Shown here: piece by piece, positions 6,096 through 31,604 of the stretch
Numbering within the stretch: position 1 is the first letter of the stretch
Layout of the letters: each line of letters begins with the position of its first letter
From: Acidobacteria bacterium bin61
GTDB lineage: Bacteria > Acidobacteriota > Vicinamibacteria > Marinacidobacterales > SMYC01
DNA: 64,000 nt
Assembly: GCA_963578475.1 (NCBI GenBank)
Contig: CAUZCL010000018.1
Location: 4,579 to 68,578, forward strand
Reading direction: 5' to 3'
Made by a program: the position numbers and the translations under genes
The notes under the pieces: generated by a model
Databases searched by the model: none
Told to the model about the DNA's origin: nothing
What the model saw: only the letters and a program-made list of their open reading frames with translations

Positions 6096-6450
6096 GATGT
6101 CACGAGCGTCGCACGTCCGTCCTCGGTGAAATAGTCGTCTTGCGGACCCAAGACGATGCGGAGCGTGACGCCGGTTTCGCTCGTCTCGGCCCGCTCCTTC
6201 AACGACGGCCAACGGCGATTGCTTCAGCTCCTAATAACGTTAGCTCGTCGCACGCTTGAAGCGCGCGGCCTTGAAAGCCGCCCACCTCGGCAAGGACATA
6301 GGTGGAGCGTGAGCCGAGAACGGGCGGAACGTCAATCCCGCCCGCGAACCAACGTAGGCTCTTGACGGACGCATACGCCACGTCGAGCTTGGCCGCCGCA
6401 CCCGCCACTTGGATGTGTAACAGAAAGAGGAGAAACAGCGTTGCTTTCAT
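6096..6450. repeat. Mosaic duplication. A ~90%-identical copy of an internal pxpC (KipA) segment (8047-8319) is joined to a copy of the 5' end of the exported-protein gene (5617-5712). Together they form a chimeric 83-aa ORF (6199..6450, minus strand).
   Basis: By direct comparison, 6096-6360 aligns with 8047-8319 and 6368-6450 aligns with 5617-5700. The chimeric ORF reads MKATLFLLFLLHIQVAGAAAKLDVAYASV followed by the KipA fragment GGIDVPPVLGSRSTYV... Confidence 0.8.
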
Positions 6451-6468
6451 TCTGCCCCCCGTTCTTGG

Positions 6469-7614: not shown

Positions 7615-7775
7615 ATTGAGATTGTTCGCTCCCAGGTTGACATTCTGGCCGAGATTACACTATCGGCCGATCGTCGAGCTTAGTGTTTCATCAAGCGCCA
7701 AGAATAGAGTATCGCCGCCAGACGAGCAAATCGGCAGGGAGGTTCTCCTGAACAGCGAGCTCGAGCGGTGGCGCG

Positions 7776-9383: not shown

Positions 9384-9410
9384 CTGGTGGGCATTCGGGA
9401 GAGCCCAACA

Positions 9411-10172
9411 TCACCCGATGGGGCGAACGTCGACGCCACTCTTCCTGAGAGCGGCCCGAACGATCCTCGCATTGTCGAGCGCGGCGGGGTTGTCGCCGTG
9501 AAGGCAAAGCGTCTCCGCATCGAGTGGCACCACTGTGCCGTCATGCGCGGTGACCTGCTTTTCTGCTGCAATCGATACGGCTTGAGCGCCAGCACGTTCG
9601 GGGTCGGTGATGACAGAGCCTTCGATCTTCCGCGATTGCAGCGTCCCGTCCGCGTTGTAGACGCGGTCGGCAAAGGCTTCGCCCGCATAGCGCAGCCCAT
9701 TCGACTCCGCCGCCGCGCGCATCACCGCAGACCCGGCGAGGCCCACGAAGATGAGGTCACGGCTCACGCGCGCCACCCCGCGCGCGATAGCACCGGAGAG
9801 CTCTTCATCGGTGACGGCTTGGTTATAAAGCGCGCCGTGCGGCTTGACGTGGACGAGCGGCAAGCCATGCGCTTTCGCGAAAGCCAAAACGGCCCCCACT
9901 TGATAGACGATATCGGATTCCACGTCATCCGGGCTCGCCGCCACGTTCTGCCGCCCGAAACCTCGAAGGTCGTGGTGGCTCGGATGAGCGCCCACGGCAA
10001 CCCCGTGTTTCGCAGCGAGGCCAACGGTGCGGTCGATGATGCTTGGGTCGCCCGCGTGAAAGCCGCAGGCCACGTTGGCCGACGTTACGAGCTCGAGCAT
10101 CGCGTCGTCATCGGCGCCGATGCGGTAGATGCCGAAGCTCTCCGCCATATCGCAGTTGAGATCGATGCGCAT
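9411..10172 (-). CDS. pxpA: 5-oxoprolinase subunit A (LamB/YcsF family)
   Basis: MRIDLNCDMAESFG...ANVACGFHAGDP...HVKPHGALYN. The start is chosen at the conserved MRIDLN Met. The ORF in the track begins 9 codons earlier. Confidence 0.8.
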   Translation of the reverse strand: MRIDLNCDMAESFGIYRIGADDDAMLELVTSANVACGFHAGDPSIIDRTVGLAAKHGVAVGAHPSHHDLRGFGRQNVAASPDDVESDIVYQVGAVLAFAKAHGLPLVHVKPHGALYNQAVTDEELSGAIARGVARVSRDLIFVGLAGSAVMRAAAESNGLRYAGEAFADRVYNADGTLQSRKIEGSVITDPERAGAQAVSIAAEKQVTAHDGTVVPLDAETLCLHGDNPAALDNARIVRAALRKSGVDVRPIG

Positions 10173-10227
10173 GCCGCGATTGTATAACTTCGCTTTCACT
10201 CGCCGAAAGCGCTAAAATAGGCATCCT

Positions 10228-10359
10228 ATGGGTAAAGGCGACCGAAGAACAAAGAAGGGCAAGATCTTCCAAGGCACCACTGGCAAGATCCGTCCCAAGG
10301 CGAAGAATAAGAAGAAAAAGGCCTCCGGCGCGACCACCACTGGGAAAAAAGAAGACTAG
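10228..10359 (+). CDS. 30S ribosomal protein bTHX (Thx), 43 aa. Not in the ORF track because it is shorter than 60 aa.
   Basis: [43 protein letters not shown] closely resembles Thermus Thx ([24 protein letters not shown]). It sits in the convergent gap between pxpA and ispG. Confidence 0.6.
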
Positions 10360-11498
10360 CCGGCGGCTGTTCTCTCTTCGATCAGTCGGTCGAGCTCCTC
10401 TTTGAGCCGAGGCAGAATCTCCTCGTAGGAGAACGCGCCGAGGCCGTCCCCTCCTTTTTTCAAGTTCACGTATTGCGGAGCGCACCAAAGGCCCAGATCC
10501 GCGTCGTCGGTCTCGCCCGGCCCGTTCACCCGACAGCCCATCACCGCGATCGTGATCGCGTGGTCCTTCGCATAGCGCGTCATTTCCTGCACTTTTTGCG
10601 CAAGCTCGACGAATTGCTCATTCTCGACCCGCGAACAGGACGGGCAAGAAATAATGTTGAGCGAGTGGCTCAATGTCTTGGGTACCGAGCGAAACCGGCC
10701 GGAAGCGATGTCTTCGAGGATGCGATGCCCTATTTCGACCTCTTCGTGTTTCGTTGCGTTCGGCAGCGTGAGCGAGACGCGGATCGTGTCGCCGATGCCT
10801 TGCGTCAAAAGCTGCTCGAACGCGATACGCGTCTTGATGATGCCGTCTGGCGGTAGACCGGCTTCGGTAACCCCTAGATGAAGCGGCACGTCTGGACGCT
10901 CGGCCGCAAAACGCTGATTGCCTTCGATGACCTTGGCCGGGTCGGAATCTTTAAGGGAGACGCAGTAGCGGGTGAAGCCAAGAGCATCGAGCATTTCAGC
11001 GTGCTCGAGCGCCGAAGCCACCATAGCACCCACCGAGTCCTCGCTAAATTCGTCGGCGCGGGCCGGGTCGATCGAGCCGCTGTTGACGCCAACCCGCATC
11101 GCGCAGTCAGAAGCACCCGCGATGTCGACGAGAAAGGCCACTTTGTCGCGCACAGGTTTTTCCCGCTCGTGATGGTAGAGATGGCCTGGGTTGTAGCGGA
11201 TCTTGTCCACGTGGGGCGCCACCTTCTCAGCAAGCCGATAGCTTTCCTGAAGATCGATAGAGAGGTTCGCGCTCGTGCGCTCGCGAATGGCCGCGACGGC
11301 TTCCGCGTCCTTGACGCTGTCGACCGCGATACGAACCACGCCCGCCCCAGCCCGGCGGAGCTGCTCCGCCTGCTCGACCGTGGCGTCGACATCCTGGGTC
11401 TTGGTCGCGCACATGCTTTGCACAACGACCGGCAACCCGTTGCCGATCGTGACATTTCCTATTGAGACGCTTCGCGTCGAGCTCCGCCGTAAGGTCAT
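10356..11498 (-). CDS. ispG: 4-hydroxy-3-methylbut-2-enyl diphosphate synthase (flavodoxin)
   Basis: A GcpE family member along its whole length ([32 protein letters not shown]). The start is set at [16 protein letters not shown]. The longer N-terminal extension in the track is antisense to the PilZ gene. Confidence 0.85.
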
Positions 11499-11615
11499 CC
11501 TCCTTATTGTAGTGTTCCAGGCTCCCGGAACACCATGGATCGACCATAAATCTTGCCGATTTCGGACTTTACTAAGAGGCTCCACTCGGCGTAGCATGTG
11601 AGCGGAGGAGTATTC

Positions 11616-11948
11616 ATGGAGAAGCGTTCTGAGTCTCACCTCAGGCCTGACGGCGCCATCAAATGTTTGGTGGAGTGGGAAAAAGGCCGGGAGGAGGGCC
11701 AAATCCACAATGTCTCCCCCAGAGGCGCGTTTCTCGAATCCAGCAGCGATTTCGGCATCAACCGCGTCAAGTTGATCATCGACCTCGAGACCCTCGAAGC
11801 GCCACTCACGCTCGAAGCCGCCATCCGCTGGCACGCCGTCTCACCCGAGGACGAGACCGACCATTATGGCCTCGTGTTTCGCAACCTCGACGAGGAGACT
11901 CAGGAAAAACTCTACCGCGCCATCGAATCTCTCGCCGCCACGAGCTGA
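11616..11948 (+). CDS. PilZ-domain protein, a c-di-GMP receptor
   Basis: A PilZ-like R-x3-R...D-x-S-x-G-(A/G) pattern (LRPDGAIK...[11 protein letters not shown]) and a C-terminal beta-barrel segment. Confidence 0.55.
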
Positions 11949-11998
11949 CGGACGCCCAACAAGGGCGGGCCGTACATCAGAAATCAGGAGATCCTCGA

Positions 11999-13102
11999 AT
12001 GAAGCTAGTACCTTTCGTCATGGAGCGCACTCAATCCGTCTGGGAGAACCAGGTCGAGCTCAACATCTCGGAAAGCGGCGTTACCCCGCTCACACTCGGA
12101 GAGCTGCTCGACGGCGCGTCGATCGACGACACGAAACTCATCTACCCCCAGACCAACGGCACTCCGGAGCTGCGCGACGCGATAAGCGATCTCTATCCCG
12201 GCTCGGTCGCCGAGAATGTTCTCGCAACGAACGGCACGTCCGAAGCGAACTACATCTCGGTCTTGAGCACGCTCGAGCCCGGCGACGAGGCCGTTGTCAT
12301 GATTCCGAACTATATGCAAGTAGCGGGCCTCGCTCGCTCGATAGGCGCGAACGTGAAGCTGCTCCCTCTTCACGAAGAGCTGGGCTGGGCGATCGACCCC
12401 GACGAGCTTCGAAAAATGGTCACGGACAAGACAAAGCTCATTGCCGTGTGTAATCCCAACAACCCAACAGGCGCGGTGATGAGCGAGAACGCGATGCGTG
12501 ATGTCGCGAAAATTGCCGGAAGCGTCGGGGCTTGGATCCTCTCCGATGAAGTCTATCTCGGCGCCGAGCTCAACGGCGAGCCCTCCGCGACCTATTGGGG
12601 CTGGTACGACAAGCTCATGGTGACCGCGGGCCTCTCGAAGGCCTATGGGCTTCCCGGCCTGCGCATGGGCTGGGTGGTCACCGACAAGGAACACGCAGAA
12701 TATCTGTGGTCCTACAAGGACTACACGACGATAGCGCCTTCCGCGCTCTCGGATCGCCTTGCGACCCACGCGCTCGAGCCGGCACGCCGTACCAAGATCC
12801 TGGAGAGGACGCGCGCGATCTTGAACGATCAGCAGCCGGTTCTCGCGGCCTTCGTCGAGCGGCACGGCAACCACATGTCCTGGGTGAAGCCGAAAGCCGG
12901 CGCCATCGCTTTCATCCGCTATAGCTGGGATATCAACTCCACGACCTTGATGGAGCGCCTCCGCGACGAGAAGGGCGTGTTCATCGTGCCGGGGGATCAC
13001 TTCGAGATGGACCACTACATGCGTCTCGGCTATGGGTACCACAAAGAGGTGCTCGAGAAAGCCCTCGCCCGCTGCTCGGAGTTTTTTGAGGAACTCAACT
13101 GA
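11999..13102 (+). CDS. Class I/II PLP-dependent aminotransferase (AspC/HisC-like)
   Basis: NPNNPTGAV and SKAYGLPGLRMGW (the Lys in the SKxxG motif). It is full length, 367 aa. Confidence 0.8.
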   Translation: MKLVPFVMERTQSVWENQVELNISESGVTPLTLGELLDGASIDDTKLIYPQTNGTPELRDAISDLYPGSVAENVLATNGTSEANYISVLSTLEPGDEAVVMIPNYMQVAGLARSIGANVKLLPLHEELGWAIDPDELRKMVTDKTKLIAVCNPNNPTGAVMSENAMRDVAKIAGSVGAWILSDEVYLGAELNGEPSATYWGWYDKLMVTAGLSKAYGLPGLRMGWVVTDKEHAEYLWSYKDYTTIAPSALSDRLATHALEPARRTKILERTRAILNDQQPVLAAFVERHGNHMSWVKPKAGAIAFIRYSWDINSTTLMERLRDEKGVFIVPGDHFEMDHYMRLGYGYHKEVLEKALARCSEFFEELN

Positions 13103-13158
13103 AAACAGGTGCGCATCGAGGAGCGCGCGGCGGATGGCTCACGTAGAATGGTCGTAAG

Positions 13159-13539
13159 GTGCTTTTTCTCGAACGTCTCGCCGAACAGAAGATCCAGGCC
13201 GCCATCGAGCGGGGCGAGCTCGACAATTTACCCCTCTCTGGAAAGCCCCTCGGGCTCGAGCCTCGCGGCCTCGTGCCCGAAGATCTGAGGCTCACCTACA
13301 AACTCCTCAAGGACGCGGGTTTCCTGCCTCCCGAGATAGAGCTTCGGAAGGAGATCACGACGCTTGGGGACCTTCTCCGAACCGTCCATGAGGGGGACGA
13401 AGACGAGCGCTGTCGCCTCGCCCGCGAGCTCAACGCCAAAGTGCTCCGGCTAAACCTTCTGATGAAACGCTCGTTCGACCGCGAAGATCGCCAGGTCTAC
13501 GCAGGCAAGCTCAGAAACAAGATGCTAGAATCGAAGTAA
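13159..13539 (+). CDS. DUF1992 (DnaJC28-like) domain protein
   Basis: LAEQKIQAAIERGELDNLPLSGKPL matches the DUF1992 N-terminal motif. Confidence 0.6.
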   Translation: MLFLERLAEQKIQAAIERGELDNLPLSGKPLGLEPRGLVPEDLRLTYKLLKDAGFLPPEIELRKEITTLGDLLRTVHEGDEDERCRLARELNAKVLRLNLLMKRSFDREDRQVYAGKLRNKMLESK

Positions 13540-13594
13540 GCATCCCCAAACAAAACTTACAGTCTTTCCCAGGCATCCCCAGGGGGGAGGCAAC

Positions 13595-14110
13595 GTGGCT
13601 TTGAAGCCTTTCGTCAAATCGCAGCTGGTCGAGGTCATCGAGTGGGTGGACGACTCGACCGACACGCTGGTCTACCGCTTCCCTGTCGAGGGGCAAGAAA
13701 TCAAGATGGGCGCCCAGCTCACGGTGCGAGCGGGCCAGCTGGCGGTTTTCGTGAACGAGGGGCCCATCGCGGACACCTTCGAGCCGGACCGGCACCGCCT
13801 CGCGACGCGCAACATGCCCGTCCTGACCAAACTTCTCGCGTGGAAGCACGGTTTCGAATCGCCGTTCAAAGCCGAAATCTACTTCGTGTCCGCGCGCCTG
13901 TTCACGGACCAAAAATGGGGTACATCGAACCCGGTCATGATGCGCGACCCCGAGCTCGGCCCCATCCGGCTGCGTGCTTTCGGAATTTACTCGTTCAAAG
14001 TGCGCGACGCAGCTCTCCGACACGGCCAAGAATCGTCCTCGTACCTGCACACCTTTTTCATTTCATCGCACGACTCGTTTAGAGGGTCTCTCGACGGCCA
14101 GCCCCCCTAA
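13595..14110 (+). pseudogene. SPFH-domain / 'virion core protein'-like (COG4260) gene. Only the N-terminal ~150 aa remain. The 3' part is replaced by the lower-GC island.
   Basis: IEWVDDSTDTLVYRFP...IKMGAQLTVRAGQLAVFVNEGPIADTFEPDRH...FESPFKAEIYFVSARLFTDQKWGT matches the conserved N-terminus of this family. Similarity stops near 14000 and the ORF tail is junk. Confidence 0.55.
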
Positions 14111-14876
14111 ACAGGGGAGCCATGCACCTTGCGGACGATGTCGCTTTGAAAGACCGTCCTTCTCATCCGGTCCTTGTCGTCCAGGACCATGTCTTGGCAG
14201 GTCACTTCCTTCACCACGCCCAGAGACAGGTCCGAGTGGTAGCTGACCTTGTTCGGTCCGAAGATCAGGCTGTAGGCAAGGACCGAGTGCTTCCGGTTGT
14301 CGACGAACGCGCTCACCGGAGTTTCCGAGCCGGCAACCACTCGAACGAAGTCCATGTCGCACATCACGGCTTTGCCATCCACGCCCTGGGGAGGCCCGTC
14401 CACGAACACGAACTGGTATGGATAATCGGGCACCTCCTTGTAAACGTGCCCCCGCACGAACGAGTAAGAGTACACTTCGATTGGTGATTGCCGTATCTCG
14501 ACGAATGGCTTGAACTGGTCGGGCAGCGCCGACAGCGCATGCTCATACCAGATCGGATTTGCTCCATCGAGACGAGCTTTATCCCGTCAGCCGGAGTCCC
14601 ATTGAGGTTCTCCAACATGGCCTGTGCGATGATCATGGTCGACCTGCCAGTGCCGCACTCGAGGACGAAGCTGGGTCGGTCGGTCCTGATCTTCCTGTAC
14701 AGGGCCACGTAGTCGGTAGTACTGACGCCGACGGATGGGGATGCTACGTTGGCATACGCCAGGATGTCTTTAAGTCCTGGTGTCTTGCCCATATAGTCGT
14801 TCGCGGCGGCGAGTAGGCGCAGCCTTCTTGGTCTGCTCCTGATGCGCTCGAATCTATGCTTCAGCCCTGTGATCAT
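14107..14876 (-). pseudogene. Class I SAM-dependent methyltransferase (TylF/CmcI-like), frameshifted. It is the first gene of the lower-GC island.
   Basis: Two overlapping ORFs in different frames (14364..14876 and 14107..14475). The first carries FVLECGTGRSTMIIAQAM (SAM-binding motif I). The second carries YQFVFVDGPPQG (the acidic motif that follows). Confidence 0.45.
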
Positions 14877-15114
14877 AACGCGCCTCCCGAGAGTCTGGGA
14901 ACGAAGCTGTCAACAATATCGCCCTGTAGATCGAATTCGGGCGCGTAGCTGGCATCTGGCCTGGGATGAGACGCGATTTGCGGGGCTGGCGGCACGTGTT
15001 CTCCCACAGTTGGCGAACGGTGCATTTGTAGCTTCCGTACAACTTGCAACTTTTCAGATATGAGCGACGAATTCCACTCTCGTGTCGATGCTCGCAACAG
15101 CTCTCGAAGCTGCC

Positions 15115-15477
15115 TCACGTCGCGGACACCTCTGATGGGGCGCGGCCCTCGGATACAGCCACTCGACCGTTCTCTACGGATATCACCTTGTGGAAATCGA
15201 ACGCCCTTGCCCGACGGGCCAATGCCAGCAGGCCGACTGCCACGGTCGCCAGAACCAGCAGGATGGCGGGAACCCACCCATCAGAGATCGCGACATCCCA
15301 GCCCACCGTTTCTAATACTTTGGCCACCAGGTCAACTGCCTGGTCGGGGGTAAGCAACAGATAGACCAGCGTCAAAGTCGCCGTCTCCAGAGACGGCAAC
15401 GCGAGAGCCAGAGAAAACAGGGTCGCGAGCGCTAGCTTGTAGCGACGGGCGATGTCGGCTAGCTGCCTGACAGGCAT
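15115..15477 (-). CDS. Hypothetical membrane protein
   Basis: A 120-aa ORF with three predicted transmembrane helices, in the island region. Confidence 0.35.
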   Translation of the reverse strand: MPVRQLADIARRYKLALATLFSLALALPSLETATLTLVYLLLTPDQAVDLVAKVLETVGWDVAISDGWVPAILLVLATVAVGLLALARRARAFDFHKVISVENGRVAVSEGRAPSEVSAT

Positions 15478-15611
15478 TCTATTCTATGCCCTCATGCACC
15501 GATTTGGTGGGTCTGTCGGGCATCATTATTGCGTATCCTCTTACGCTCGATGGAATCCTGTGCATTGCGGGGGTAAGGGGGCGCCAGCCGAACGAGGAAC
15601 CGATCCTGGGT

Positions 15612-15938
15612 TCAGCCAGCCGTCTGACGAGGAGGGACCACGTACTCTCTCTGCTCGACGCAGCAGTTATAGGCCCAGGCCTCCTTGGACTTGGCCTCGT
15701 CTTCCTGGGGTGGCGCCACGTACTCGCTGGGGTCGTCCCAGTCATCCATGCGCGTCTCCTGCATACCCTGGAAGAAGCGCAGCCGATACTTCTGCTGGTA
15801 CTCGTCTAAGATGCGGTTGCCCTCCTCGGTATCGCTCTCCGCCTGGCGTATTTTGGGCCACTCGTCTTTGGGGAACTGGACGTAACAGATGAACGTCCGC
15901 ATCAGGCCATCGATTTCGGCCGACGATAGCTGAGGCAT
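15612..15938 (-). CDS. Hypothetical protein
   Basis: A 108-aa non-repetitive ORF in the lower-GC island with no recognisable domain. Confidence 0.3.
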   Translation of the reverse strand: MPQLSSAEIDGLMRTFICYVQFPKDEWPKIRQAESDTEEGNRILDEYQQKYRLRFFQGMQETRMDDWDDPSEYVAPPQEDEAKSKEAWAYNCCVEQREYVVPPRQTAG

Positions 15939-16065
15939 GTTCAGAATGGAGTTCGATGTTGTATGAGTGGTGATGAGTTGGCATCCAAGTAGCCGCGGGC
16001 GACTGCCATGCGAGTCTGTAGGGAATCTCTACCGGATGCTTTGGTAGGGATCGGACACCGCGCGC

Positions 16066-17001
16066 CTATCTCCCGCTCTCCATAGCCCAGCGTGTAAATT
16101 GACGCACGCCCCGTAACGGTGGAAAGGAGGGTGTGAACCCAGTCGCAGAATGCAGGGTAGAGATGTCAGCGGCGATGCCGAAGATGTCGCCCGGGGTGCC
16201 CTCGGCCACCTCAACTGTAAGCTGGTCCGAAACGCCTAGTTCGTCGGCGATAGCGGAACTGAGCTGCCTAATAGTCATCGCTTCACCAGAGCCCACGTTG
16301 AATGGTCCATCAGTCTCGTTCTGGGTCGCACATAACATCCATGCCGTGACTACGTCGTCAATATGCACGACGTCACGAAACCGCTCCAGTGGGCCCCGAG
16401 ATACGATCCTGGGGCTTTTCAACAACATCGCCACGAATATGCTGACCAGACCCTGGTCCATGCGGGTCAAATCCTGCCCTGGACCATAGACGTTGAACAT
16501 GCGTAGGTTGTTGAAGGAGATTCCCCGGTCGCTGCAAAAGATGTGAACCAGCCGCTCACACGCTAGTTTCGCGATAGCATAGTGGGACATGGGCAGGCAG
16601 GGCGTATCTTCCGTCACCGGGTTCTGCTCAATAGTTACGTTGCCGTAGACTGTCATACTCGACGCATGGAGGATGCGCTCGACACCCAACCGTGCGCCCA
16701 GCTCAAGGACATTGTAGGCGACCCGGTAGCCATCGGCCACCGTGCCTACGGGGTTCCTGGCCGATGAGGGACCCGATTCGGCTGCCGCCAGATGCATGAG
16801 GCAATCCGCACTTGATATACTCACGGCCGCGACAGAATTTGCGTCCTTCAGGTCGACTTGGACGAGAGTGGCACCCGGTACGCGTTCTACAACCGAGGTG
16901 ACCGAGCTGTCGAGCATAGTGACCTGGTGGCCTTCCTCTACAAGCCTGGATGCAATCCGAGAACCAACGAATCCCAAGCCCCCGGTAACGACAACGTGCA
17001 T
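16066..17001 (-). CDS. NAD-dependent epimerase/dehydratase (SDR-extended, UDP-sugar 4-epimerase-like)
   Basis: VVVTGGLGFVGSRIASRL (Rossmann GxxGxxG) and the YxxxK region (SHYAIAKLACE). Confidence 0.75.
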   Translation of the reverse strand: MHVVVTGGLGFVGSRIASRLVEEGHQVTMLDSSVTSVVERVPGATLVQVDLKDANSVAAVSISSADCLMHLAAAESGPSSARNPVGTVADGYRVAYNVLELGARLGVERILHASSMTVYGNVTIEQNPVTEDTPCLPMSHYAIAKLACERLVHIFCSDRGISFNNLRMFNVYGPGQDLTRMDQGLVSIFVAMLLKSPRIVSRGPLERFRDVVHIDDVVTAWMLCATQNETDGPFNVGSGEAMTIRQLSSAIADELGVSDQLTVEVAEGTPGDIFGIAADISTLHSATGFTPSFPPLRGVRQFTRWAMESGR

Positions 17002-17163
17002 CTGAATCCCTACCTTTACCCTACTTCCAGGTTGATATTTCTCTATTACGTACTCGGGGCTAATCGCGAAAGAAGTTGTTCACTGATTCAATAATGTAGT
17101 CTTGTTGTTCGCGCGATATTTCCGTTTCCCGGCCCGAGGCGGTCTCCCGAGGGAGTGTTGCGC

Positions 17164-19071
17164 TCACTCGGTGTCAACCTCCAGCAGAGTCTTAAGGTGG
17201 TCACGACGACGGGAGCCGGCCAGAGCATCCCGAAATTCCCCTAGCGGCAATATGTCCTGAAAATACGCGCCCAACTCCAGACTGGGGAGCACGCCCAGTG
17301 CCTCTTCCATCTCCGCGACACCACTTCCAACAGAGCCCACGAGTGTCTTGTCGTAGGCAACCGGGTCCTGAAGAGAAAATCGCTCGTGTGCAGACGGGAC
17401 CTCCAGAAGCAGAATCGTCGCTCCGGCCGGGCTCTGGATCAGCATGGTCTCCAACACCTGCGAATCGCCCGTCAGCTCGACCATGACGTCGAAGGTTTCA
17501 AGGTGGTCCAGCGTGTCCGTGAGGCGGACGTCCGAAGCCGCAAGGTATTCCCGTCGGGCCGGGTTGCGATCATAGACCGTGACCACGTGGCCCTGGCGCG
17601 CCAGCACCTGTGCGCAGAAATGTCCTTGAGGGCCCGCGCCTGCCACAAGGAAATGACGATTACTCGCTGACGGCGGTATTGCCCTCTGCAAACGCTTCAG
17701 GCCCTTGAGCACAGTGGCCAGGGGCTCCGCGAGACTGGCGGACCTGAGGTCGACGCCGTCCGGGATTCGAGCCACGAACTGGCCTGGCAGGACCACGTAC
17801 TCGGAGTGGGCGCCGTTGCGCCCGAAGAGGCCCATCTCGACCCGCTCAGCACAGCCTATCTCGGAGCCACGGCGACACTCGGCACACCTGCCGCACCCTT
17901 GGATGTAGGCGCCGACCACCGGATCGCCCTCCATCCAGGAGTCAACGTTGACACCCGTGGCTACCACGCGTCCGCTGAACTCGTGCCCAAGAACAATGGG
18001 GTACCGAGCGAACCCCTCTTTCACGTAACGGTGCGTTCCGTCGAGCACTTCGAGGTCTGCCTGGCAGACGCCGGCGTACGCGACCCTTACCAGCACTTCT
18101 CCCGGCTTCAGCCTGGGGAGATCGATCTCCTCCAGGGCCGCCTGCCCAGGGCCCCGCGCGACCACGGCCTGGCAGCGCCGCCGGGCGAAGTACATGGCAT
18201 CCTTGCTCTCTAGGTCCGCCACAGCGGCGCCATCCAACAGGCCCCTGACCGTTCCAATGGCCTTGTTCATTCGGAACGAGAAGATCTCCGGTGCCCGCCT
18301 CCAGACGTTGTCCTCTCGCGTGGCACGGTACAGGTCGATGAAGAATCGGCCGGCTTCGCACGCTACCTCGACGGGGACCTTCCGCTGGCCGGTCAACCCA
18401 ATCATCTTCCCCGCCACCGCCTCGCGATAGAATCGCCGGCGTACCTGGGGCCAGTTCTCTTCGTGTATGTGGTAGAGGGCCGCCTGGGGCTCGTACTTCA
18501 CGTGTAGGCCCCGTTCCATCCAGTACTTGGCCCACTCGATGTCTTCCAGGCCCGGCAGGGCCTCGTCGAACCGGTGCGTCTGCCACAGGTCACTGCGTAT
18601 AGCCGAGTTGGCATTGTTGGCGAAGAAATTGGGCGGCTTTAGCAGCTTTGGCTTGCTCCCGAATGTACGCCGCAAGTCGATCGCCTCGCTGAACTTTGTC
18701 GCCTCCCAACCAAGTTGCCTGCCATATACCATGGCGGTGTTCTCTTCACGGAGGGGGGCGATGAGATTGCCGAGCCAGTCGTTGTTCAGCGGCTTGGTGT
18801 GGGCCGACACAATGGCAACGAACTGCCCGACGCATGCCTCCATGCCAACGTTGAGCGAGTAGCCGTAAGTGAAATCGCTGCCGTCGATTCGCAGGATTCT
18901 ATCGGTGTGACGGGCCGCGATGTCCCTGGTCCGGTCGTACGACCCGGAGTCCACGAAGACGATCTCGTAGTCGCGGTAGGACTGGGTGGCCAGCCCCTCC
19001 AGTAGCTTTGGAAGGTGCTTCTCCTCGTTGAACGTCCGTACCAGTACAGACGTCTCTGGGGTCGGGCTCAC
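17164..19071 (-). CDS. Fusion protein. An N-terminal family-2 glycosyltransferase is joined to a C-terminal zinc-dependent medium-chain alcohol/polyol dehydrogenase.
   Basis: Residues 1-270 are GT2-like (VLVRTFNEEKHLPKLLEGLATQSYRDYEIVFVDSGS, DxD). Residues ~300-635 are MDR-like (GHEFSGRVV, structural-zinc GCGRCAECRRG, Rossmann VAGAGPQG). It is one continuous 635-aa frame. Confidence 0.75.
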   Translation of the reverse strand: MSPTPETSVLVRTFNEEKHLPKLLEGLATQSYRDYEIVFVDSGSYDRTRDIAARHTDRILRIDGSDFTYGYSLNVGMEACVGQFVAIVSAHTKPLNNDWLGNLIAPLREENTAMVYGRQLGWEATKFSEAIDLRRTFGSKPKLLKPPNFFANNANSAIRSDLWQTHRFDEALPGLEDIEWAKYWMERGLHVKYEPQAALYHIHEENWPQVRRRFYREAVAGKMIGLTGQRKVPVEVACEAGRFFIDLYRATREDNVWRRAPEIFSFRMNKAIGTVRGLLDGAAVADLESKDAMYFARRRCQAVVARGPGQAALEEIDLPRLKPGEVLVRVAYAGVCQADLEVLDGTHRYVKEGFARYPIVLGHEFSGRVVATGVNVDSWMEGDPVVGAYIQGCGRCAECRRGSEIGCAERVEMGLFGRNGAHSEYVVLPGQFVARIPDGVDLRSASLAEPLATVLKGLKRLQRAIPPSASNRHFLVAGAGPQGHFCAQVLARQGHVVTVYDRNPARREYLAASDVRLTDTLDHLETFDVMVELTGDSQVLETMLIQSPAGATILLLEVPSAHERFSLQDPVAYDKTLVGSVGSGVAEMEEALGVLPSLELGAYFQDILPLGEFRDALAGSRRRDHLKTLLEVDTE

Positions 19072-19315
19072 ACCGACGCCTCGCCGCTTCGGGCCGAGAC
19101 CCGAAAAGGGCCATGCCAGATTACGCGGGGCCCGAGACGAAGGCTACTCTTCACCCTGCCCTGACCTCATCTCGACCGGGTGCATACTGACTCACGAGCG
19201 GGTCCTCCTTCATCAGCGACTGGACCATTACACGGTCAGCCTCGGTGTCGACCGCGTGGCTTGCTGTGCTCGGTCTCCACCATGCGGACCTTATAGCCGT
19301 GTTCCAACAGACGCA

Positions 19316-19576
19316 TCATGTCGACGGATTCGGCCACTCCAGCGGCGTTGGGTCCAGTCGCGCGTACTCGAGAAGCGTCTCCCGCCGGAACGGGATGACA
19401 CACACCTGTTTGTGCACCGGCGTTCCAGCTAATCCCGATGGAGGGCTGGTAGGGATCGCTTGCCGCGAGAAGTACAGTGCATTGCCACTGCCGTCTATCA
19501 CGACCTTGACAGTGTTTGGGTCCCGGTACTCTTCCATGGTGGTAATTCGCTTTGCCAGGTTCACACATCCTATCAT
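19316..19576 (-). pseudogene. Internal fragment of a CMP-sugar cytidylyltransferase (KdsB/NeuA-like)
   Basis: NTVKVVIDGSGNALYFSRQAIP matches the KdsB 'VVxDxxGxALYFSR' block. Only ~85 aa are present, with no N-terminus. Confidence 0.45.
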
Positions 19577-20093
19577 TCAGGCTCTCAGACTGGCAAGAGT
19601 CTCTAGACGTGAACATGACCGGAACATTCTTGTTGACCCAGGCGGTGTGCAGGGTCTTCGAAGAACAAGGGTCGGGTAACATTATCAACATCTGCTCGAC
19701 GTATGGCCTCATGGGCCCGGACCAGCGAATCTACAACGAGGGCGAGGAGATGACATTCGTCAAGCGGACCACCTACTCGGTGACGAAATTAGCTGTGCTG
19801 GGGTTCACCCGCTACCTCGCTGCCTATTACCGCGGAGGAACATCAGGGTGAACGCCCTTACGCCCGGCGGCGTCGAACAAGACCACGACGAAGATTTCGT
19901 GCGCCGCTACAGCGCTAAGACCATTCTTGGGAGGATGGCCCGCCCTCACGAGCTGACCGGAGCGCCTAAGTTAGGCTGTCGTTTCAGCTTCGTCGCACGA
20001 TTGTGGCGAACGCTTCGGCGACGCGACCAACGTCATCGTCATGAATGTGGCAATGGGTCACGAATCGGATGGTGTTGTCTGAACGCAGCATAG
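19552..20093 (+). pseudogene. Short-chain dehydrogenase/reductase fragment, 5'-truncated and frameshifted
   Basis: VNMTGTFLLTQAV...[11 protein letters not shown]...[16 protein letters not shown] in one frame is followed by VNALTPGGV...[12 protein letters not shown] in another frame (19848..). There is no N-terminal Rossmann region. Confidence 0.55.
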
Positions 20094-21130
20094 CAGCTCT
20101 TCCGAAACCGGATCTAGGGCAGCCCATTCAAGCCACATCGGCGCTGCGGACTGTCGCGCCTTCGCGAGATCGAAAGGCGTCGGCTCTCTTAGGGTCATGC
20201 CCTGATCGCGCAGCTCCCGCCGCGCGTCGAGGTCCATGGCGGGGATCTGTCGTCGAAAGGTCGCGCTCCAATCTCTGGCGTTACTCTGCAGGATTGTTTG
20301 CAGCGAGGCCGGCAGCTCGCTCCACGATTTCTGGCTCATGAGCACGAACTGATGTCCCATCGAGAGATTAAGCATGTAGCCGTGCTCGATAAAGTCGTAT
20401 AGCTTCCAATCACGCACGGAGAGAGCCGACGTGATGACGCCGTCAATCACTTTTCGTTGGAGGGCGATCGAGCCTCGGCAGACGCGATGGACACCGGAAC
20501 CGCGCCGATTGTCTTCAACATCTCGACTTGCTGCTGATTCCAGACCCGGATCTTCTTGCCCTTCAGGTCCTCGAGACGTTCGATGGGTGTGTCCGTCCAC
20601 ACATTCTGCGGAGGCATCGTCCAATGAAAGAGCACGCGGACGTCAGCTTTCTCGTTCAAATGGTCCGCGAAAATAGTGCGGGTGCCCCCGACGGCCTCGT
20701 TGAACTCATCGAAGCTGACGCAAAGAAACGGCATGCCGAAGACGTTGAGCTCCGGCACGTCGCCCGCCAAGAGACCAACGCTCCCGTCGACGAGATCGAC
20801 TTGATGGGCCGCAACGATCTTGATCATGTCGAACGGCGTGTAGGGAAGCTCGCCGGCGGTAAACACCTGAAGGCTCAGGGCACCGCCGCTATCATTGCGT
20901 AGGTCGAAGGCGAGCTCGCGGTATAGATGCGCCACCTGATCGTTGGTGGGAAAATAGGTAAAAAGCCGCAGACGCACGGGCTCCGACGTTTCCGCCGCCG
21001 CGCTCGCTCCCGCGGCGCAGCATCCGATGAGCAAAACCGCGATCGTCCGGCACCGCACCTTCCTACTCACGGCTGAGCCTCTCACGCTCTGTGATGGTTC
21101 GCTTCTCGTCAACGGCGCCACCAGCTTCAT
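20058..21130 (-). pseudogene. TRAP-type solute-binding protein (DctP-like), frameshifted
   Basis: Two overlapping frames (20447..21130 and 20058..20624) together cover a DctP-like periplasmic binding protein with a signal peptide. Confidence 0.5.
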
Positions 21131-22795
21131 CGAGAACCACGCCCGTACACTCTTTTCGCGCGCGCGGGCGTCACCCGTCCGGCCAAAACGTCCTGAAGCA
21201 CGAGTGACGGCTCTCGTTCGAGAGGAGAGCCGTAGCCGCCGCCCCCCCCATTTGAACGCTGAACGTGTCTCCGGGCGCGAGCTCGACCGAGGTTTTGGAG
21301 GAATGCTCCTGGAGTTCCGAATCTGGGTTCAGCCTGTACTTCGCGCACCGTGCGGGCTGTCCGCCGGCCAACCCCAGCGGGGGAAACTTGCCGCGGTCCG
21401 AGAGCACGGAGAAGACCACCTCATGGTCGAAGAAATAGTCGCGGCGAAGTCCGAGGCCGCCGTGGTAACGCCCCGCGCCTTGGGAGTCGGGAATCAACTC
21501 GTAGCGGGAGATACGAACCGGATACCACGCCTCGGTCTCCTCGACGGGGGCGTTTTCGGTGCTTTGGCCATGGGGCTGAACGGCATCGATACCGTCTTTA
21601 GAAGCCCTTGCGCCTAGCCTCCGCCCATGGCCTCGTAGAAGACGTAGTACTCACCGGTCCTCGGGGAAATCCCACCGAAAGAGATATTGCATAGAGCACC
21701 CTTGGAGCCCGCGGCGAGCCGCTCGGACATGCACTGCCCGAAAGCTTCGAGTGCGGTCTCGCAGACCCGGAACGCCGTCTCCCAACCGCCTCCGATCGCG
21801 GCCGGTGTCCGCGCGTTCACGATCGAGCCCTCGGGAGCAATGACGTCGAACGTTCTGTAAAAGCCTTCATTGATCGGAAGACCGGGATCCATCATGACCC
21901 GGAGCGCGTAGGCGCAGTTGGAGAGCGTCATGGCGTACGTCGCGTTGATCGGGCATTTGCGTTGCGCGTCCGAGCCCGTCAGATCGAACACGACCTTCTC
22001 GTCTTCGACCGTAATCGCGACGACGACTTTGATAGGCGTTTCGGTGAACCCGTCGCCGTCCATGAACCCTTCCGCCTTATAGACGCCGTTCGGGATGTTT
22101 CGGATCTCCTCCCGCGTCCGGCGTTCGCTATACTCGATGAGCTTTGAGACCGTGCGGTCGAACGTGTCGACGCCGTATTTGTCGAACGTTTCGGAAAGAC
22201 GCCGGGTTCCCGTGTGGATGCCGGCAATCTGTGCCCTGAGATCGCCACCCGTCTCCTTCGGAGACCGACTATTGGCTTGAAACAAATTGAAGATGTTTTC
22301 GTCGAGCTCGCCTCGATTGAGGAATCTCACCGGAGGGATTCGGAATCCCTCCTGGTAAATCTCCTTGGCGAGGCCGATGCTTCCCGGCGTCAAGCCGCCT
22401 ACGTCGAGGTGATGGGCAATCGTCGCGACGAACGCCACGAGCTCGTCATCATAGAACACAGGCGAGACGAGACAGACGTCGTTCATGTGGACGCCGCCGT
22501 TCAGACCGTCGTTACATAGAATCCCGTCACCGGGCTCGAGCCGCTCGACGCCGTAAGCGTCCATGATTCGCGGGACGAAGTGCACGAGCGAGCCGAGGTG
22601 CACGGGCTGGGAAAAAGACTGGGCGATCACGCGCTGTGCGCGGTCGAAGATCGCGCACGAAAAATCCTGGCGAGTGGTGATGTTGGTGGAGTAAGCCGTT
22701 CGTTGAAGGGCAACGCACATCTCGTCTGCGGTCGCTGTCAATCGATGGCGCAATACCTCCAGGAAAACAGGATCCTCGTGCAAGGCGACGTTCAT
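21127..22795 (-). pseudogene. hyuB: Hydantoinase B / 5-oxoprolinase (HyuB family) with two 1-bp frameshifts
   Basis: It is read in three frames. 21614..22795 ends ...FYEAMGGG*. The next frame gives LGARASKDGIDAVQPHGQSTENAPVEETEAWYPVRISRYELIPDSQGAGRYHGGLGLRRDYFFDHE. A third frame (21127..21348) gives GGGGGYGSPLEREP... The first break is a missing base in 'ggcggaggcta-ggcgca' near 21605. The second is in a C8 homopolymer at 21242-21249. Confidence 0.75.
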
Positions 22796-22804
22796 CGCGT
22801 TCGC

Positions 22805-24000
22805 TTACTCCTTCTTCTTTAGTAACAGGACTCCATAGATGCCGACTTCGGCCTGGTACCCTGGATGGAGGAGCGTGGTCGAGTCGACCTCCTCGATCAC
22901 GGCCGGGCCGGCCACGACGTTGTGTTGCTGGAGACGATAGCGGTCGTAGATGGGACAGTCGACGAACACGGCCGCCTCCTCGAAATAGACGGGGCGCTCT
23001 CCCTTAAGAGCGTGCGCCGACGCCATCGGGAACGTTCTCGAGGCGGGGTTTCGGAGCGCGCCCCACTGCAAGGAGACCGACGTTTACGATTTCGAGTGGT
23101 TCGCCGGGGACGGAGTAGCCGTAGCTCTGGTGATGCGAATCGTGGAAGGTGCTCTCGAGCTTCGCGAGCCTGTCTTCCGTCAGTCGCTCGGACGGAGTCG
23201 GGATTCGAAGCGTCCAGGACTGGCCCACGTAGCGCATGTCCAGGTAGTGTTCGAGCGTGACGTTCTCGCGGTCCACACCTTCGTTCGACAGATCGCCAAA
23301 CGCTTTGGACTCGAAATCCTCGTAAATCTCGTTCAGTGCATCGAAGCCGGTCGGACCGAGGTCCGTGAGACGCGTGATTCGATAATCATGACGCAGATCG
23401 CTGATGAGCATTCCCATCGCCGAGGCCACGCCGGGGCTCGGGGGCACGACGACGACAGGAATGCCGAGCTCAGCGGCGAGCCGGTTGGCGTGCACCGGCC
23501 CGGCACCGCCGAACGTGACGAGGCTGAACTCGCGTGGGTCGTAGCCGCGCTGAACCGAGACGAGTCACATGGCCTCGACCATCGTCGAATTCTCAATCTC
23601 GACGATCCCCATGGCCGTCGATTCCACGGGACGGCATAGAGCGTCGGCGCATCGAGCGGCGATGGCGTCGCGCGCCAACTTCCGATGGAGAGAAATCTCG
23701 CCCCCGAGGAAGTAGTCCGCGTTCAACCGGCCAAGAGTTAGATTCGCGTCCGTGACCGTCGGCTCTCGTCCACCTTTTCCGTAACACGCTGGACCCGGAT
23801 CCGCGCCGGCGCTCTTCGGCCCCACACGCATGAGTCCGCCCGCGTCGATCCAGGCGATGCTGCCACCGCCCGCCCCGACTTCGACCAGGTCCATCACCGG
23901 CACCAAAATGGGATACCCGCTCCCTTTCGCGATACCGCTTCCCGAGCCGGCGACGCCTCCGGCTTCGAACTCTGATACGACGGACTCGGCAGGCTACGAG
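22805..24000 (-). pseudogene. hyuA: Hydantoinase A (HyuA family). The N-terminal ~290 aa are missing and there are two or more frameshifts.
   Basis: Three ORF pieces (23565..23906, 23004..23495 and 22805..23071) carry consecutive HyuA segments (DLVEVGAGGGSIAWID..., HANRLAAELGIPVVVVPP..., ...GPAVIEEVDSTTLLHPGY). The ggt promoter region begins at about 24040, so the 5' third of the gene is absent. Confidence 0.65.
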
Positions 24001-24164
24001 GTGGCAGAAATAGATCGCCTCACCAAAGGCCTCGGGGTCGTCTTTCGGAACGCCTTCGTGTATAGAATACCGCGATGTCTTTTTGTTCCGGCCACGGGAT
24101 GGCTTTTTTGTGGCAACACCATTTAAGATGACACCGTCCTGGTCGGGACGAAGGAGGAGCGACC

Positions 24165-31234: not shown

Positions 31235-31604
31235 CTCGGCTCCTTTCTCTTGCGGCTTGATGTTGTTTTTGCCAACGTCATCAAACTACGGGGTTGGGAG
31301 CCGTTTCAATTTCCAACTCAGAATGGCACACTCTCAACAGCGGCCGCGACATCCCCACATTGGGGACGCATCCGTTTGTTGTTATCTTCCTTTTTTCATG
31401 TTACAAGGAGACAAATTGGTCTGTTTATTTAACAAATAAGGGCAGGGAGGGTGTTGACCTATGGGAGAAGGATGAAGCTCTAGCCTCGAGGAGGGAAGAG
31501 TTCCGGAAACGGCTACCTCCGACCGGCAAGCCGAAGCACCAGGCCAGGGTGGTTCGGCTAACGATGACAATGTTAGTTCTAATACAAAAGATAGGAGTTC
31601 ACAA

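Follow-up and report, generated by a model that had tools for sequence, protein, structure and literature searches.

What kind of locus lies between a broken SPFH gene and a broken SDR gene in the 64,000-nucleotide stretch of DNA analysed here (the window)? The original prediction, made from the letters alone, described a lower-GC sugar-modification island inserted into the SPFH gene, with an unusual fusion of a family-2 glycosyltransferase (GT2) to a zinc alcohol dehydrogenase. We put the probability at roughly 80% that a cell-surface glycan operon was acquired horizontally and has eroded to what now occupies positions 14107-19576. The sugar-pathway genes in a foreign block were rightly recognised, but the island is not a functioning module.

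Results

Edges and composition of the block

At the left edge, the host SPFH gene (Band_7_1/COG4260-type; 13595-14110, plus strand, 171 aa) matches only positions 1-115 of the 211 in the Pfam Band_7_1 profile, and its homology to 24 longer homologues stops at nt 14002-14071 in tblastn. The gene is therefore 3'-truncated, as the original prediction held. True homology covers approximately the first 140-160 codons, and the rest up to the stop is junk read-through. In the relatives L011 and L093 the SPFH gene is followed by a DZR zinc-ribbon ORF. A search for the 3' half, suggested along with the original prediction, returned neither that half nor the zinc-ribbon tail within the 64 kb, and the 24 homologues gave no second tblastn match anywhere in the window. 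The right junction falls in an SDR pseudogene of the host (19552-20000, plus strand), which matches only positions 93-165 of 195 in adh_short. By three-frame translation it lacks approximately its first 85-90 codons and carries at least one frameshift near 19848. Since the SPFH 3' half is missing and the far edge cuts a different gene, host DNA was probably replaced or deleted and SPFH not simply split by an insertion. Next to the SPFH gene of the host relative L011, no such glycan cluster is present.

Between these two broken genes lie approximately 5.5 kb of foreign DNA (14107-19576), in which the ORF list places every recognisable gene on the minus strand, as had been claimed. The block (~14.1-19.6 kb) is compositionally foreign by its oligonucleotide signature, not by GC. 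The reported fall from approximately 67% to 55% GC is absent: 14107-19071 has 59.6% (41st percentile of same-size windows) against 60.2% for the whole window, and the fusion gene (17164-19071) has 62.6%. Measured against everything else in the window, 14107-19576 has a dinucleotide delta* of 155, whereas 47 same-size null windows averaged 46 and reached at most 91. In sliding 2-kb windows, delta* rises at ~13.5-15.5 kb and drops at ~19-21 kb, the host-like signature resuming from ~19.5 kb. The k-mer analysis proposed with the original prediction agreed, as tetranucleotide distance reaches its maximum (z = +4.0) at 15001-20000, the sole outlier within the 64 kb. The block resembles the homologous clusters L001 and L003 (delta* 39-48), unlike the flanks, which are close to L011 (delta* 44.5). 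This L001/L003 match may reflect cluster-specific composition and not donor lineage, because the comparison covered the clusters alone. Searches around the island found no flanking repeats and no tRNA, and no integrase-like ORF stood out on inspection of the window's ORF list.

Five dead genes and two intact ones

When proteins of related clusters are aligned to the window, they match as fragments in operon order, and the stops and frameshifts can be read directly in its sequence. Of the seven recognisable island genes five are dead, which leaves just the epimerase and the 635-aa fusion intact. The KpsU/KdsB-type CMP-Kdo synthetase pseudogene (19154-19576, minus strand) retains residues 121-260 only, with one stop and two compensating frameshifts; in tblastn it is 70% identical to the 260-aa genes that stand intact next to the fusion homologues in L001 and L003. 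Against NF009905 (cut-off 255) an intact KpsU-like relative reaches 289.6 bits, and its best PDB match is 1GQ9 (E = 6.5e-49). A decayed cytidylyltransferase and a decayed SDR are both present just past the fusion, where they had been predicted (Pfam, tblastn, three-frame translation). On the other side of the fusion, comparison with the sister strain L009 identifies the first ~14 codons of an 'FNDIDH'-family gene (17126-17167, minus strand); in L009 this gene follows the fusion intact, with 442 aa.

The "two hypothetical proteins" of the original prediction turned out to be gene debris. One of them (15612-15938) corresponds to the C-terminal part of a radical-SAM gene and lies downstream of an in-frame stop. 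The whole remnant (15615-16046, minus strand; tblastn) keeps approximately the last 140-159 of 421 codons: the query L001:16806-18071 (PF04055 Radical_SAM, 421 aa) aligns over residues 262-420 at 70% identity, with the stop inside the alignment. The radical-SAM family was seen in 13 related loci, and some other loci of these clusters encode longer radical-SAM proteins with an added B12-binding domain. The other (15115-15477, minus strand; tblastn), annotated elsewhere as a 120-aa hypothetical protein, is a fused TMD-NBD ABC exporter without residues 83-543. Its residues 1-82 (15477-15232) are joined directly to residues 544-571 (15201-15118), so ~460 codons were lost in frame; identity to the 571-aa proteins of L001 and L003 is 71-73% in the first segment and 68-82% in the second.

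The terminal gene of the operon (14107-14876, minus strand) consists of two overlapping ORFs (170 and 122 aa) and is inactivated by a single frameshift at about nt 14555-14565. Once repaired, its 256-aa product shows 46% identity over 227 aa to L137:13794-14570, an intact 258-aa ORF, and the alignment runs unbroken across the frameshift. The single frameshift of the predicted TylF/CmcI-like methyltransferase is thus real in the window sequence, but the family assignment is not borne out: the Pfam and NCBIfam scans list neither TylF nor CmcI, and the label "methyltransferase-like" comes from a single sub-threshold Methyltransf_24 match (E = 0.0019). L010, 100% identical to the window, has the same frameshift, which, seen only in window-identical sequence, could by itself be a sequencing error.

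Of the two intact genes, the 311-aa extended SDR at 16066-17001 (minus strand) is an NAD-dependent sugar epimerase/dehydratase, in agreement with the original prediction. It covers the full PF01370 profile (161.6 bits), carries the motifs GGLGFVG (residue 7) and YAIAK (residue 141), and is 39% identical to the L003 epimerase of the same operon position; it reaches no NCBIfam equivalog cut-off. The population carries several 311-aa epimerase variants.

The fusion protein and its family

The predicted single frame at 17164-19071 (minus strand) is free of stops and encodes 635 aa. Residues 1 to ~295 (nt 18187-19071) form a GT2 GT-A domain with a helical linker (PF00535, 68.2 bits), and residues ~296-635 (nt 17164-18186) form a zinc-dependent MDR dehydrogenase (PF08240, 94.2 bits; PF00107 below cut-off, 20.4 versus 31.8). 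The MDR domain reaches no NCBIfam equivalog cut-off (best 114.8 versus 450 bits). An AF2 model has a pLDDT of 90.3 overall and 92.6 for residues 1-295. Foldseek matches the MDR domain to 8wwd/2dfv/1e3j (TMt ~0.85) and the GT domain to PcManGT/TarS/TarP (E 1e-13 to 1e-11). The protein retains 141 of the 142 positions that are at least 95% conserved in the family. The catalytic zinc ligands (C336/H363/E364/E449), the structural cysteines (C393/396/399/407) and the motif G478xGxxG483 with Asp501 are all present and conserved. The GT-domain invariants of the family are the nucleotide-binding Asp41 and the E176-D177 pair. The canonical DXD position is presumably occupied by S89-A90-H91 throughout the family, by our hand alignment to SpsA.

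The fusion had been called an unusual arrangement. On the contrary, it is an intact member of a widespread, uncharacterised protein family. Homologues number 945 at E<=1e-5; all 120 of those listed have GT2 and ADH_N domains, 118 of the 120 are 623-664 aa long, and relatives occur in 162 species genomes spread over many phyla. The closest homologues are 77-82% identical, and the exact protein has entries from assemblies in NCBI, ENA, Logan and JGI. Whether relatives encode the two domains separately, a point raised by the original prediction, has a divided answer: L137 has the GT2 part by itself in the matching operon context, and L138-L142 give GT2-length matches, but the listed homologues are fused. 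We kept 80 loci in which nearly the whole fusion protein was matched, save at contig ends. A KpsU-like gene lies directly upstream of the fusion homologue in 42 of 66 loci, a 2-hydroxyacid dehydrogenase lies in between in 41 of 66, and a KpsU-like gene is present somewhere in 60 of the 73 loci of at least 12 kb. At the level of the protein family, redox chemistry may be coupled to glycosyl transfer, as the original prediction proposed.

Selection on the fusion gene

The sister strain L009 comes from a different sample and is represented by an independent short-read contig. This contig matches the window at 98.7% identity between 19816 and 17126, the strain-specific breakpoint, and is unrelated past it. 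It has the same KpsU truncation and KpsU/SDR junction as the window, and the window's epimerase is absent from it altogether. Three strain-specific indels separate the two sequences, all outside the fusion (p = 0.025). Within the fusion, 15 changes are non-synonymous and 6 synonymous, giving a dN/dS of 0.82, a value from 21 substitutions only between very close strains, which are known to inflate it; omega = 0.1 is rejected (p = 4e-6) and omega = 1 is consistent (p = 0.62). The fusion carries substitutions at a density of 1.10%, the adjacent pseudogene and intergenic DNA at 1.34% (Fisher p = 0.69). The L009 copy also carries D41A, losing the invariant Asp41. The fusion appears to be under relaxed, near-neutral selection in this lineage and is probably turning into a pseudogene. 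It may still be functional, or only very recently freed from selection, because of its 141 of 142 conserved residues, its open 635-codon frame and the lack of any inter-strain indel inside it.

Discussion

Intact relatives suggest how the operon would once have been laid out. They begin with a KpsU-type CMP-Kdo synthetase, often a D-2-hydroxyacid dehydrogenase, and the GT2 protein with or without its Zn-MDR part. Next come variable genes for sugar tailoring, a member of the 'FNDIDH' family (~420 aa) and sometimes a radical-SAM enzyme, and the order ends with an MsbA/PglK-like ABC exporter and the 258-aa methyltransferase-like protein. In our proposal, the block would have taken the place of host DNA between SPFH codon ~150 and SDR codon ~85, and it was then evidently reduced by deletions and frameshifts, whose traces remain legible. 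From its domains, conserved residues and neighbourhood, the GT-A domain of the fusion may contribute a sugar to a Kdo-related polymer as it is assembled, and the NAD-type Zn-MDR domain may carry out alcohol/ketone redox on a substrate of sugar or polyol type. Since both the activating enzyme and the exporter are destroyed, the gene content implies that the pathway as a unit cannot work.

A working sugar-modification island in SPFH, whose GT2/ADH fusion couples sugar redox to transfer, is accordingly quite unlikely. Foreign composition, the SPFH truncation at the block edge, and the full catalytic motifs of the intact fusion and epimerase would all fit it, but the pseudogene evidence weakens it: the five dead genes include the nucleotide-activating CMP-Kdo synthetase and the exporter. 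In addition, the window lacks the SPFH 3' half, the far edge cuts another gene, the fusion is common and its GT2 part is found alone in the same context, and its dN/dS is 0.82. A narrower version, in which only fusion and epimerase are selected as a two-gene module that uses nucleotide sugars made elsewhere in the genome and the rest is dispensable, is possible but rather doubtful. Both ORFs are complete, the conserved residues of the fusion are kept (141/142), none of the three inter-strain indels falls in it (p = 0.025), and the population holds several 311-aa epimerase variants. However, the fusion is indistinguishable from the neighbouring pseudogene in substitution pattern and density, the sister strain has no epimerase and a D41A fusion, and the KpsU-like partner kept in 60 of 73 long loci is dead here.

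Decay in place of a native, vertically inherited glycan locus, without horizontal transfer, would account for GC equal to the genome background and for the lack of integrase, tRNA and flanking repeats; the closest fusion homologues (77-82%) are also about as diverged as housekeeping proteins are from L011 (70-76%). We nevertheless consider it unlikely, as the di- and tetranucleotide signature lies far outside the range seen elsewhere in the window and changes sharply at both truncated host genes, and the L011 SPFH gene has no adjoining cluster. Very improbable is an assembly or sequencing artefact, that is, a chimeric contig or indel errors that mimic pseudogenes. The long-read relatives L011 and L093 do show many split genes resembling indel errors, and the methyltransferase-like frameshift adjoins an AAA run. 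Yet most of the damage consists of large deletions (460, ~260 and 120 codons) rather than single-base indels, short reads assembled independently from another sample show the KpsU/SDR junction too, and the exact fusion protein occurs in NCBI, ENA, Logan and JGI assemblies.

The preferred reading, an eroded glycan operon, can be set beside known systems. The relatives' gene directly upstream of the fusion resembles KpsU (E. coli K-CKS, 1GQ9) and passes the NCBIfam KdsB-subfamily cut-off. Like Kdo-containing capsule clusters, the related clusters also hold an ABC exporter and sugar-tailoring genes. In contrast, gene length and Pfam identify their exporter as a fused MsbA/PglK-like half-transporter and not a KpsM/KpsT pair, no Capsule_synth (KpsC/KpsS) domain is among the Pfam families listed for any neighbour in the related loci, and the window's own KpsU-like gene is a pseudogene.

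Among solved GT2 GT-A enzymes (PcManGT, 6YV7; TarS, 5TZE; TarP, 6H21; K4 chondroitin polymerase, 2Z86; Leptospira GT, 6P61), residues 1-295 of the model align at E 1e-13 to 1e-11 and TMq 0.5-0.65, but the fusion is only 12-20% identical and its three long C-terminal helices run into the MDR domain. Foldseek found no solved structure covering both domains (best TMq 0.48). The MDR domain resembles zinc-dependent medium-chain enzymes of the polyol/threonine-dehydrogenase type (HpsP, 8WWD; TDH, 2DFV/2DQ4; sorbitol dehydrogenase, 1E3J; galactitol-1-phosphate dehydrogenase, 4A2C) in fold (TMt ~0.85), catalytic Cys/His/Glu/Glu, four structural Cys and GxGxxG, but it shares 21-28% identity and sits behind a glycosyltransferase. 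In CDP-ribitol synthesis by TarI/TarJ, and in the Bcs1 fusion, a cytidylyltransferase works with an alcohol dehydrogenase-type reductase. A cytidylyltransferase gene and an MDR-type reductase are likewise paired here in a surface-polymer locus, and by analogy these systems may offer a precedent for a redox step on an activated unit. The cytidylyltransferase here, however, is of KdsB/KpsU type (PF02348) and not IspD type, and the reductase is fused to the glycosyltransferase instead.

Horizontally exchanged O-antigen and capsule loci, and the pseudogene remnants into which they decay, differ in that the present island has no GC deviation, has no IS element, integrase or tRNA at its borders, and cuts host genes at both of them. 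It shares with them an atypical oligonucleotide signature, multiple deletions and frameshifts, and a mosaic of genes that varies from one close strain to the next (L009 breaks off at 17126). We regard the case as ordinary island decay.

Results

The stretch at 14107-19576 is a fragment of a foreign surface-glycan operon in an advanced state of decay, lying between two truncated host genes, and is genuine, though nothing out of the ordinary. Followed along the minus strand from 19576 to 14107, it is a colinear, wrecked copy of an operon order that is intact in a low-GC marine contig (L137), where a sugar dehydrogenase is followed by an epimerase, a KpsU-like protein, a 2-hydroxyacid dehydrogenase, a GT2 of 283 aa without an MDR domain, a 421-aa protein of the 'FNDIDH' family (named by its N-terminal motif), an ABC exporter and a methyltransferase-like protein. 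The predicted minus-strand bias of the block genes is borne out. Proteins of two large glycan clusters on long contigs (L001 and L003), whose fusion homologues are 77-80% identical, were mapped back onto the window; five of the seven recognisable genes are dead, counting a 14-codon stub from the start of the 'FNDIDH' gene (17167-17126, minus strand).

Just past the fusion gene, ORF calling and Pfam confirmed the decayed cytidylyltransferase and SDR fragments. The former is a CMP-Kdo synthetase remnant (19576-19154, minus strand) that retains residues 121-260 of a 260-aa protein and carries an in-frame stop and two compensating frameshifts. With NCBIfam NF009905 and Pfam PF02348, this KdsB/KpsU copy does not score as a full-length intact frame; intact KpsU-like orthologues in two related loci pass NF009905 (L003, 289.6 bits; L005, 314.9 bits; cut-off 255). 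The two 'hypothetical proteins' of the original prediction are not genes. One is a radical-SAM remnant (16046-15615, minus strand), the C-terminal ~159 residues of a 421-aa protein, with a stop. The other is an ABC exporter remnant (15477-15115, minus strand), in which a 120-aa ORF consists of residues 1-82 of a 571-aa protein joined to its final 28, some 460 codons being gone. The predicted frameshifted methyltransferase stood in part. Two overlapping ORFs at 14876-14107 (minus strand) are indeed a single methyltransferase-like gene with one frameshift near 14560, and the repaired protein shares 46% identity over 227 residues with an intact 258-aa ORF, the last one of this operon in L137. The TylF/CmcI label was rejected, as Pfam and NCBIfam scans list only a sub-threshold Methyltransf_24 match.

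Two genes of the block are formally complete. The epimerase (16066-17001, minus strand, 311 aa) was upheld, matching PF01370 at 161.6 bits along all 240 profile positions, with GGLGFVG at residue 7 (GxxGxxG) and YAIAK at residue 141 (YxxxK); it reaches no specific equivalog in the profile scan. The stop-free 635-aa frame of the fusion (17164-19071, minus strand) was likewise confirmed to contain both GT2 (PF00535) and Zn-MDR (PF08240). Its GT2 domain scores 68.2 bits (cut-off 23.3) over residues 8-132, and the AF2 model of residues 1-295 has a GT-A fold (pLDDT 92.6, pTM 0.90). The GroES-like catalytic domain of the MDR half scores 94.2 bits against PF08240 (cut-off 23.5) over the whole profile (1-104). 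The Rossmann cofactor domain falls below the PF00107 cut-off (20.4 vs 31.8) and is recognised by its fold and by the motif G478-A-G480-P-Q-G483 (GxGxxG), which is conserved in the family together with D501. The catalytic zinc ligands C336, H363, E364 and E449 are present (E364 invariant, C336 and H363 in at least 90% of sequences), as are the structural ligands C393, C396, C399 and C407, all four invariant. D41, E176-D177, H201 and H203 are also conserved; the two histidines are invariant among 118 homologues, as are S89 and H91. At the position of the DXD motif after strand beta-4, the fusion reads S89-A90-H91 (18799-18807). This register is probable and not proven, because it comes from an alignment made by hand to the T-D-D motif of SpsA.

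The block had been described as a fall in GC from ~67% to ~55%, which failed on measurement. The window has 60.2% GC, 14107-19071 has 59.6% and the fusion gene alone 62.6%; the block lies at the 41st percentile among same-size windows, so GC does not mark it as a genomic island. The lowest GC in the window lies elsewhere (51.3% at 31001-32000 and 54.0% at 37001-38000). An ORF at 30593-31234 (minus strand) resembles by eye the N-terminal half of an IS256/mutator-type transposase, and the longest ORF listed in the ~1.8 kb after it has 154 aa (region 30593-33000).

The foreign composition of the block holds through its oligonucleotide signature, not through GC. In 5-kb tetranucleotide profiles, 15001-20000 is the sole outlier in 64 kb (z=+4.0). 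Between 14107-19576 and the remainder of the window, the dinucleotide distance (delta*, x1000) is 155; 47 same-size null windows average 46 and do not exceed 91. The CpG odds are 1.04 in the block vs 1.32 outside, and the TpA odds 0.74 vs 0.54. Along a sliding 2-kb dinucleotide profile, the distance climbs at 13.5-15.5 kb and drops again at 19-21 kb. The block signature resembles those of the homologous clusters L001 and L003 (39-48), and the flanks resemble L011 (44.5), a host relative syntenic with the left flank of the window (PxpBC-like, Thx, IspG, PilZ, aminotransferase and SPFH). Calling islands by GC only would miss this block, which the dinucleotide signature detects cleanly.

At the left edge, the truncation of the SPFH gene was upheld. 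The 171-aa plus-strand ORF matches only positions 1-115 of 211 of the Band_7_1 profile (PF13421), and homology stops at 14002-14071; the complete SPFH domain and C-terminal region (COG4260-type, with zinc ribbon) are not present. In two relatives (L011 and L093), SPFH is followed by a DZR zinc-ribbon ORF; L093 also encodes WhiA. The host itself was sampled in a marine metagenome. At the right edge (~19570), the block adjoins an SDR host gene, frameshifted and missing ~85-90 codons at its start. Like SPFH, this gene is on the plus strand.

Gene decay is not limited to the island, since host-signature genes to its right (20058-24100) are also broken: a DctP solute-binding protein lies in 227- and 130/188-aa pieces, hydantoinase B in 393 + 108 aa and hydantoinase A in 109, 163 and 73 aa. 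This part of the genome seems to be generally pseudogene-rich. On the left (6096-6359 and 8047-8318), a 272-nt fragment is 90% identical to part of a CT_A_B/PxpC-like gene whose full copy lies ~2 kb away; the fragment is either a duplicate of part of this gene or a further remnant.

A sister strain, represented by a short-read contig from another sample (L009), is 98.7% identical to the window from 19816 to 17126 and has the same truncated cytidylyltransferase/SDR junction. Past 17126, the two diverge: in L009, an intact 442-aa 'FNDIDH' gene comes next, followed by a 201-aa gene and a third ORF that runs off the contig, and the window has the 14-codon stub and then the epimerase. The L009 copy of the fusion (L009:747-2654) carries D41A at the invariant nucleotide-binding aspartate. 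With this substitution and the different downstream genes, the two close strains carry different erosion states of one island.

The window copy of the fusion keeps 141 of 142 highly conserved residues, with P361L as the only deviation. The two strains differ in this gene by 6 synonymous and 15 non-synonymous changes (dN/dS 0.82); omega=0.1 is rejected (p=4e-6), omega=0.3 is marginal (p=0.024) and neutrality is compatible (p=0.62). Its substitution density is 1.10%, vs 1.34% in the adjacent pseudogene and intergenic DNA (p=0.69). All three inter-strain indels fall in the cytidylyltransferase remnant (p=0.025). A metagenome scan for further close strains as a dN/dS control gave nothing above 57% identity at full length or 66% over part of the length. 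The conserved residues of the window copy and the position of the indels speak against relaxed selection; we nevertheless read selection on the fusion as relaxed since the loss of its partner genes. The window copy is formally intact and is possibly, though not probably, still functional.

The view of the fusion as an unusual arrangement failed, as it is neither rare nor an artefact. It has 945 homologues at E<=1e-5; among the matches listed, all 120 carry GT2 and ADH_N, and 118 are 623-664 aa long. When one genome per species was scanned, 162 encoded a relative. Among the carriers named are Dehalococcoidia, Desulfobacterales, Magnetospirillum (cultured strains too), Gemmatimonadota, Acidobacteriota, Nitrospira, Omnitrophota and a Thermoplasmatales archaeon. 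A KpsU/KdsB-type CMP-Kdo synthetase gene lies directly upstream in 42 of the 66 loci that extend far enough in this direction, a D-2-hydroxyacid dehydrogenase stands between it and the fusion in 41 of these 66, and a KpsU-like gene is present in 60 of the 73 fetched loci of at least 12 kb. One subclade, mostly Gemmatimonadota and Steroidobacteraceae, is without both partners, and its commonest neighbours look, on reading their sequences, like an ATP-grasp protein and a GT4 glycosyltransferase. As to whether the domains are encoded separately in relatives, the 283-aa ORF of L137 is a GT2 alone at the same operon position, with no MDR gene near it, and five further loci (L138-L142) match fusion residues 4-279 only. 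The fusion domains are separable.

Other genes of the related loci deserve mention. Of 137 related loci searched, 32 have, beside the GT2 or fusion gene, a conserved protein of ~413-442 aa with the N-terminal motif 'F.R.FNDxDH..PI' (e.g., L137:10837-12102, L009:2651-3979, L001:15053-16342 and L003:13085-14326). This 'FNDIDH' family (~420 aa) has no Pfam, NCBIfam or PDB sequence match and is a candidate transferase or polymerase of the GT2/fusion pathway. Relatives' clusters (L002/L003:18638-21908) also encode a PPDK_N/PEP-utilizers protein of 999 aa, with a Peptidase_C26/GATase gene after it, a pair with some likeness to the Campylobacter genes for O-methyl-phosphoramidate, Cj1418 and Cj1417.

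Discussion

Our analysis explains an apparently odd island as ordinary erosion of an acquired surface-glycan locus. Gene wreckage underlies two annotated 'hypothetical proteins' and the 'SPFH protein' of 171 aa. The original prediction had the island inserted into the SPFH gene, and the truncation at 14002-14071 agrees with such an event. A split gene with its 3' half beyond the island was rejected, as tblastn with 24 long homologues and the L011 zinc-ribbon ORF found neither the 3' half nor the zinc-ribbon tail elsewhere in the window. Since this half is absent and the opposite edge truncates another host gene, the SDR, the simplest history is that the incoming block replaced host DNA between SPFH and SDR, or that flanking deletions came later, rather than a clean insertion splitting SPFH. 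An ancestral SPFH-SDR adjacency was also rejected, because L011 has, 7 kb downstream of its SPFH gene, an adh_short fragment without homology to the SDR fragment of the window. Borders made by a mobile element were discarded as well: the direct and inverted repeats at the borders are short and at chance level, and the only tRNA in the window lies at 39200-39275, away from the block. On inspection of the ORF list of the window, no integrase-like ORF stood out.

Could the wreckage be an assembly or sequencing artefact? The lesions of the block are large deletions and not homopolymer indels, and L009, from another sample, has the same truncated junction; only the methyltransferase-like frameshift is without independent support. 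A JGI contig (L010/L092) was rejected as independent confirmation, because its 100% identity to window 6535-24110 indicates the same source.

The GT2/Zn-MDR family, tightly linked to a second-copy CMP-Kdo synthetase and a 2-hydroxyacid dehydrogenase, is the one item of wider interest. In L005 (regions 200-2460 and 6280-9944), genes with CTP_transf_3, Hydrolase_3 and DAHP_synth_1 domains look by domain content like kdsB, kdsC and kdsA. Some 4 kb beyond them, the 2-hydroxyacid dehydrogenase and the fusion are accompanied by a second, KpsU-like gene, which is therefore a dedicated paralogue. The contig of a Thermoplasmatales archaeon MAG (L058) holds the same trio, which suggests inter-domain transfer or a binning error. 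From its domains and neighbourhood, we infer that the fusion would combine a GT-A transferase with an NAD-type alcohol/ketone oxidoreductase in a Kdo-related glycan pathway. The trio (KpsU-like, D-2-hydroxyacid dehydrogenase, and GT2 or GT2/Zn-MDR) may constitute an uncharacterised pathway for a redox-tailored Kdo-like (ulosonic acid) surface glycan, and this module may be spread over more than 10 bacterial phyla and at least one archaeon. With the DXD motif lost to S-x-H, the GT-A domain might do without the usual metal site and accept a CMP-activated donor. Taken jointly, the trio pathway, its spread, the DXD-less use of a CMP donor and the window as a mere fossil form a reading that we consider unlikely, at roughly one chance in five. 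If true, the GT-A domain would be a new kind of Kdo-type transferase, and the window only a fossil of the trio system.

A full-text literature search found no experimental description or characterisation of the fusion or the trio. Considering this, the size of the family and its linkage to the KpsU paralogue, the family is a reasonable target for glycobiology, best pursued where the operon is intact, e.g., in Paramagnetospirillum marisnigri SP-1 (L047). The window itself is a poor place for such a study.

Among the Foldseek matches, no solved structure covers both halves of the fusion, and each half resembles known enzymes. Residues 1-295 resemble the ordinary GT2 enzymes PcManGT, TarS, TarP and K4 chondroitin polymerase (K4CP), with E of 1e-13 to 1e-11. 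A CMP-dependent GT42-like fold was rejected for this domain, as Foldseek gave only ordinary NDP-sugar GT2/GT27 enzymes. The AF2 model of the whole fusion is confident (pLDDT 90.3), and its C-terminal half fits polyol/threonine-type Zn-MDRs with a Foldseek score (TMt) of ~0.85. The intact KpsU-like neighbours score above the NCBIfam subfamily cut-off, and their best match is the capsule-specific CMP-Kdo synthetase K-CKS (PDB 1GQ9).
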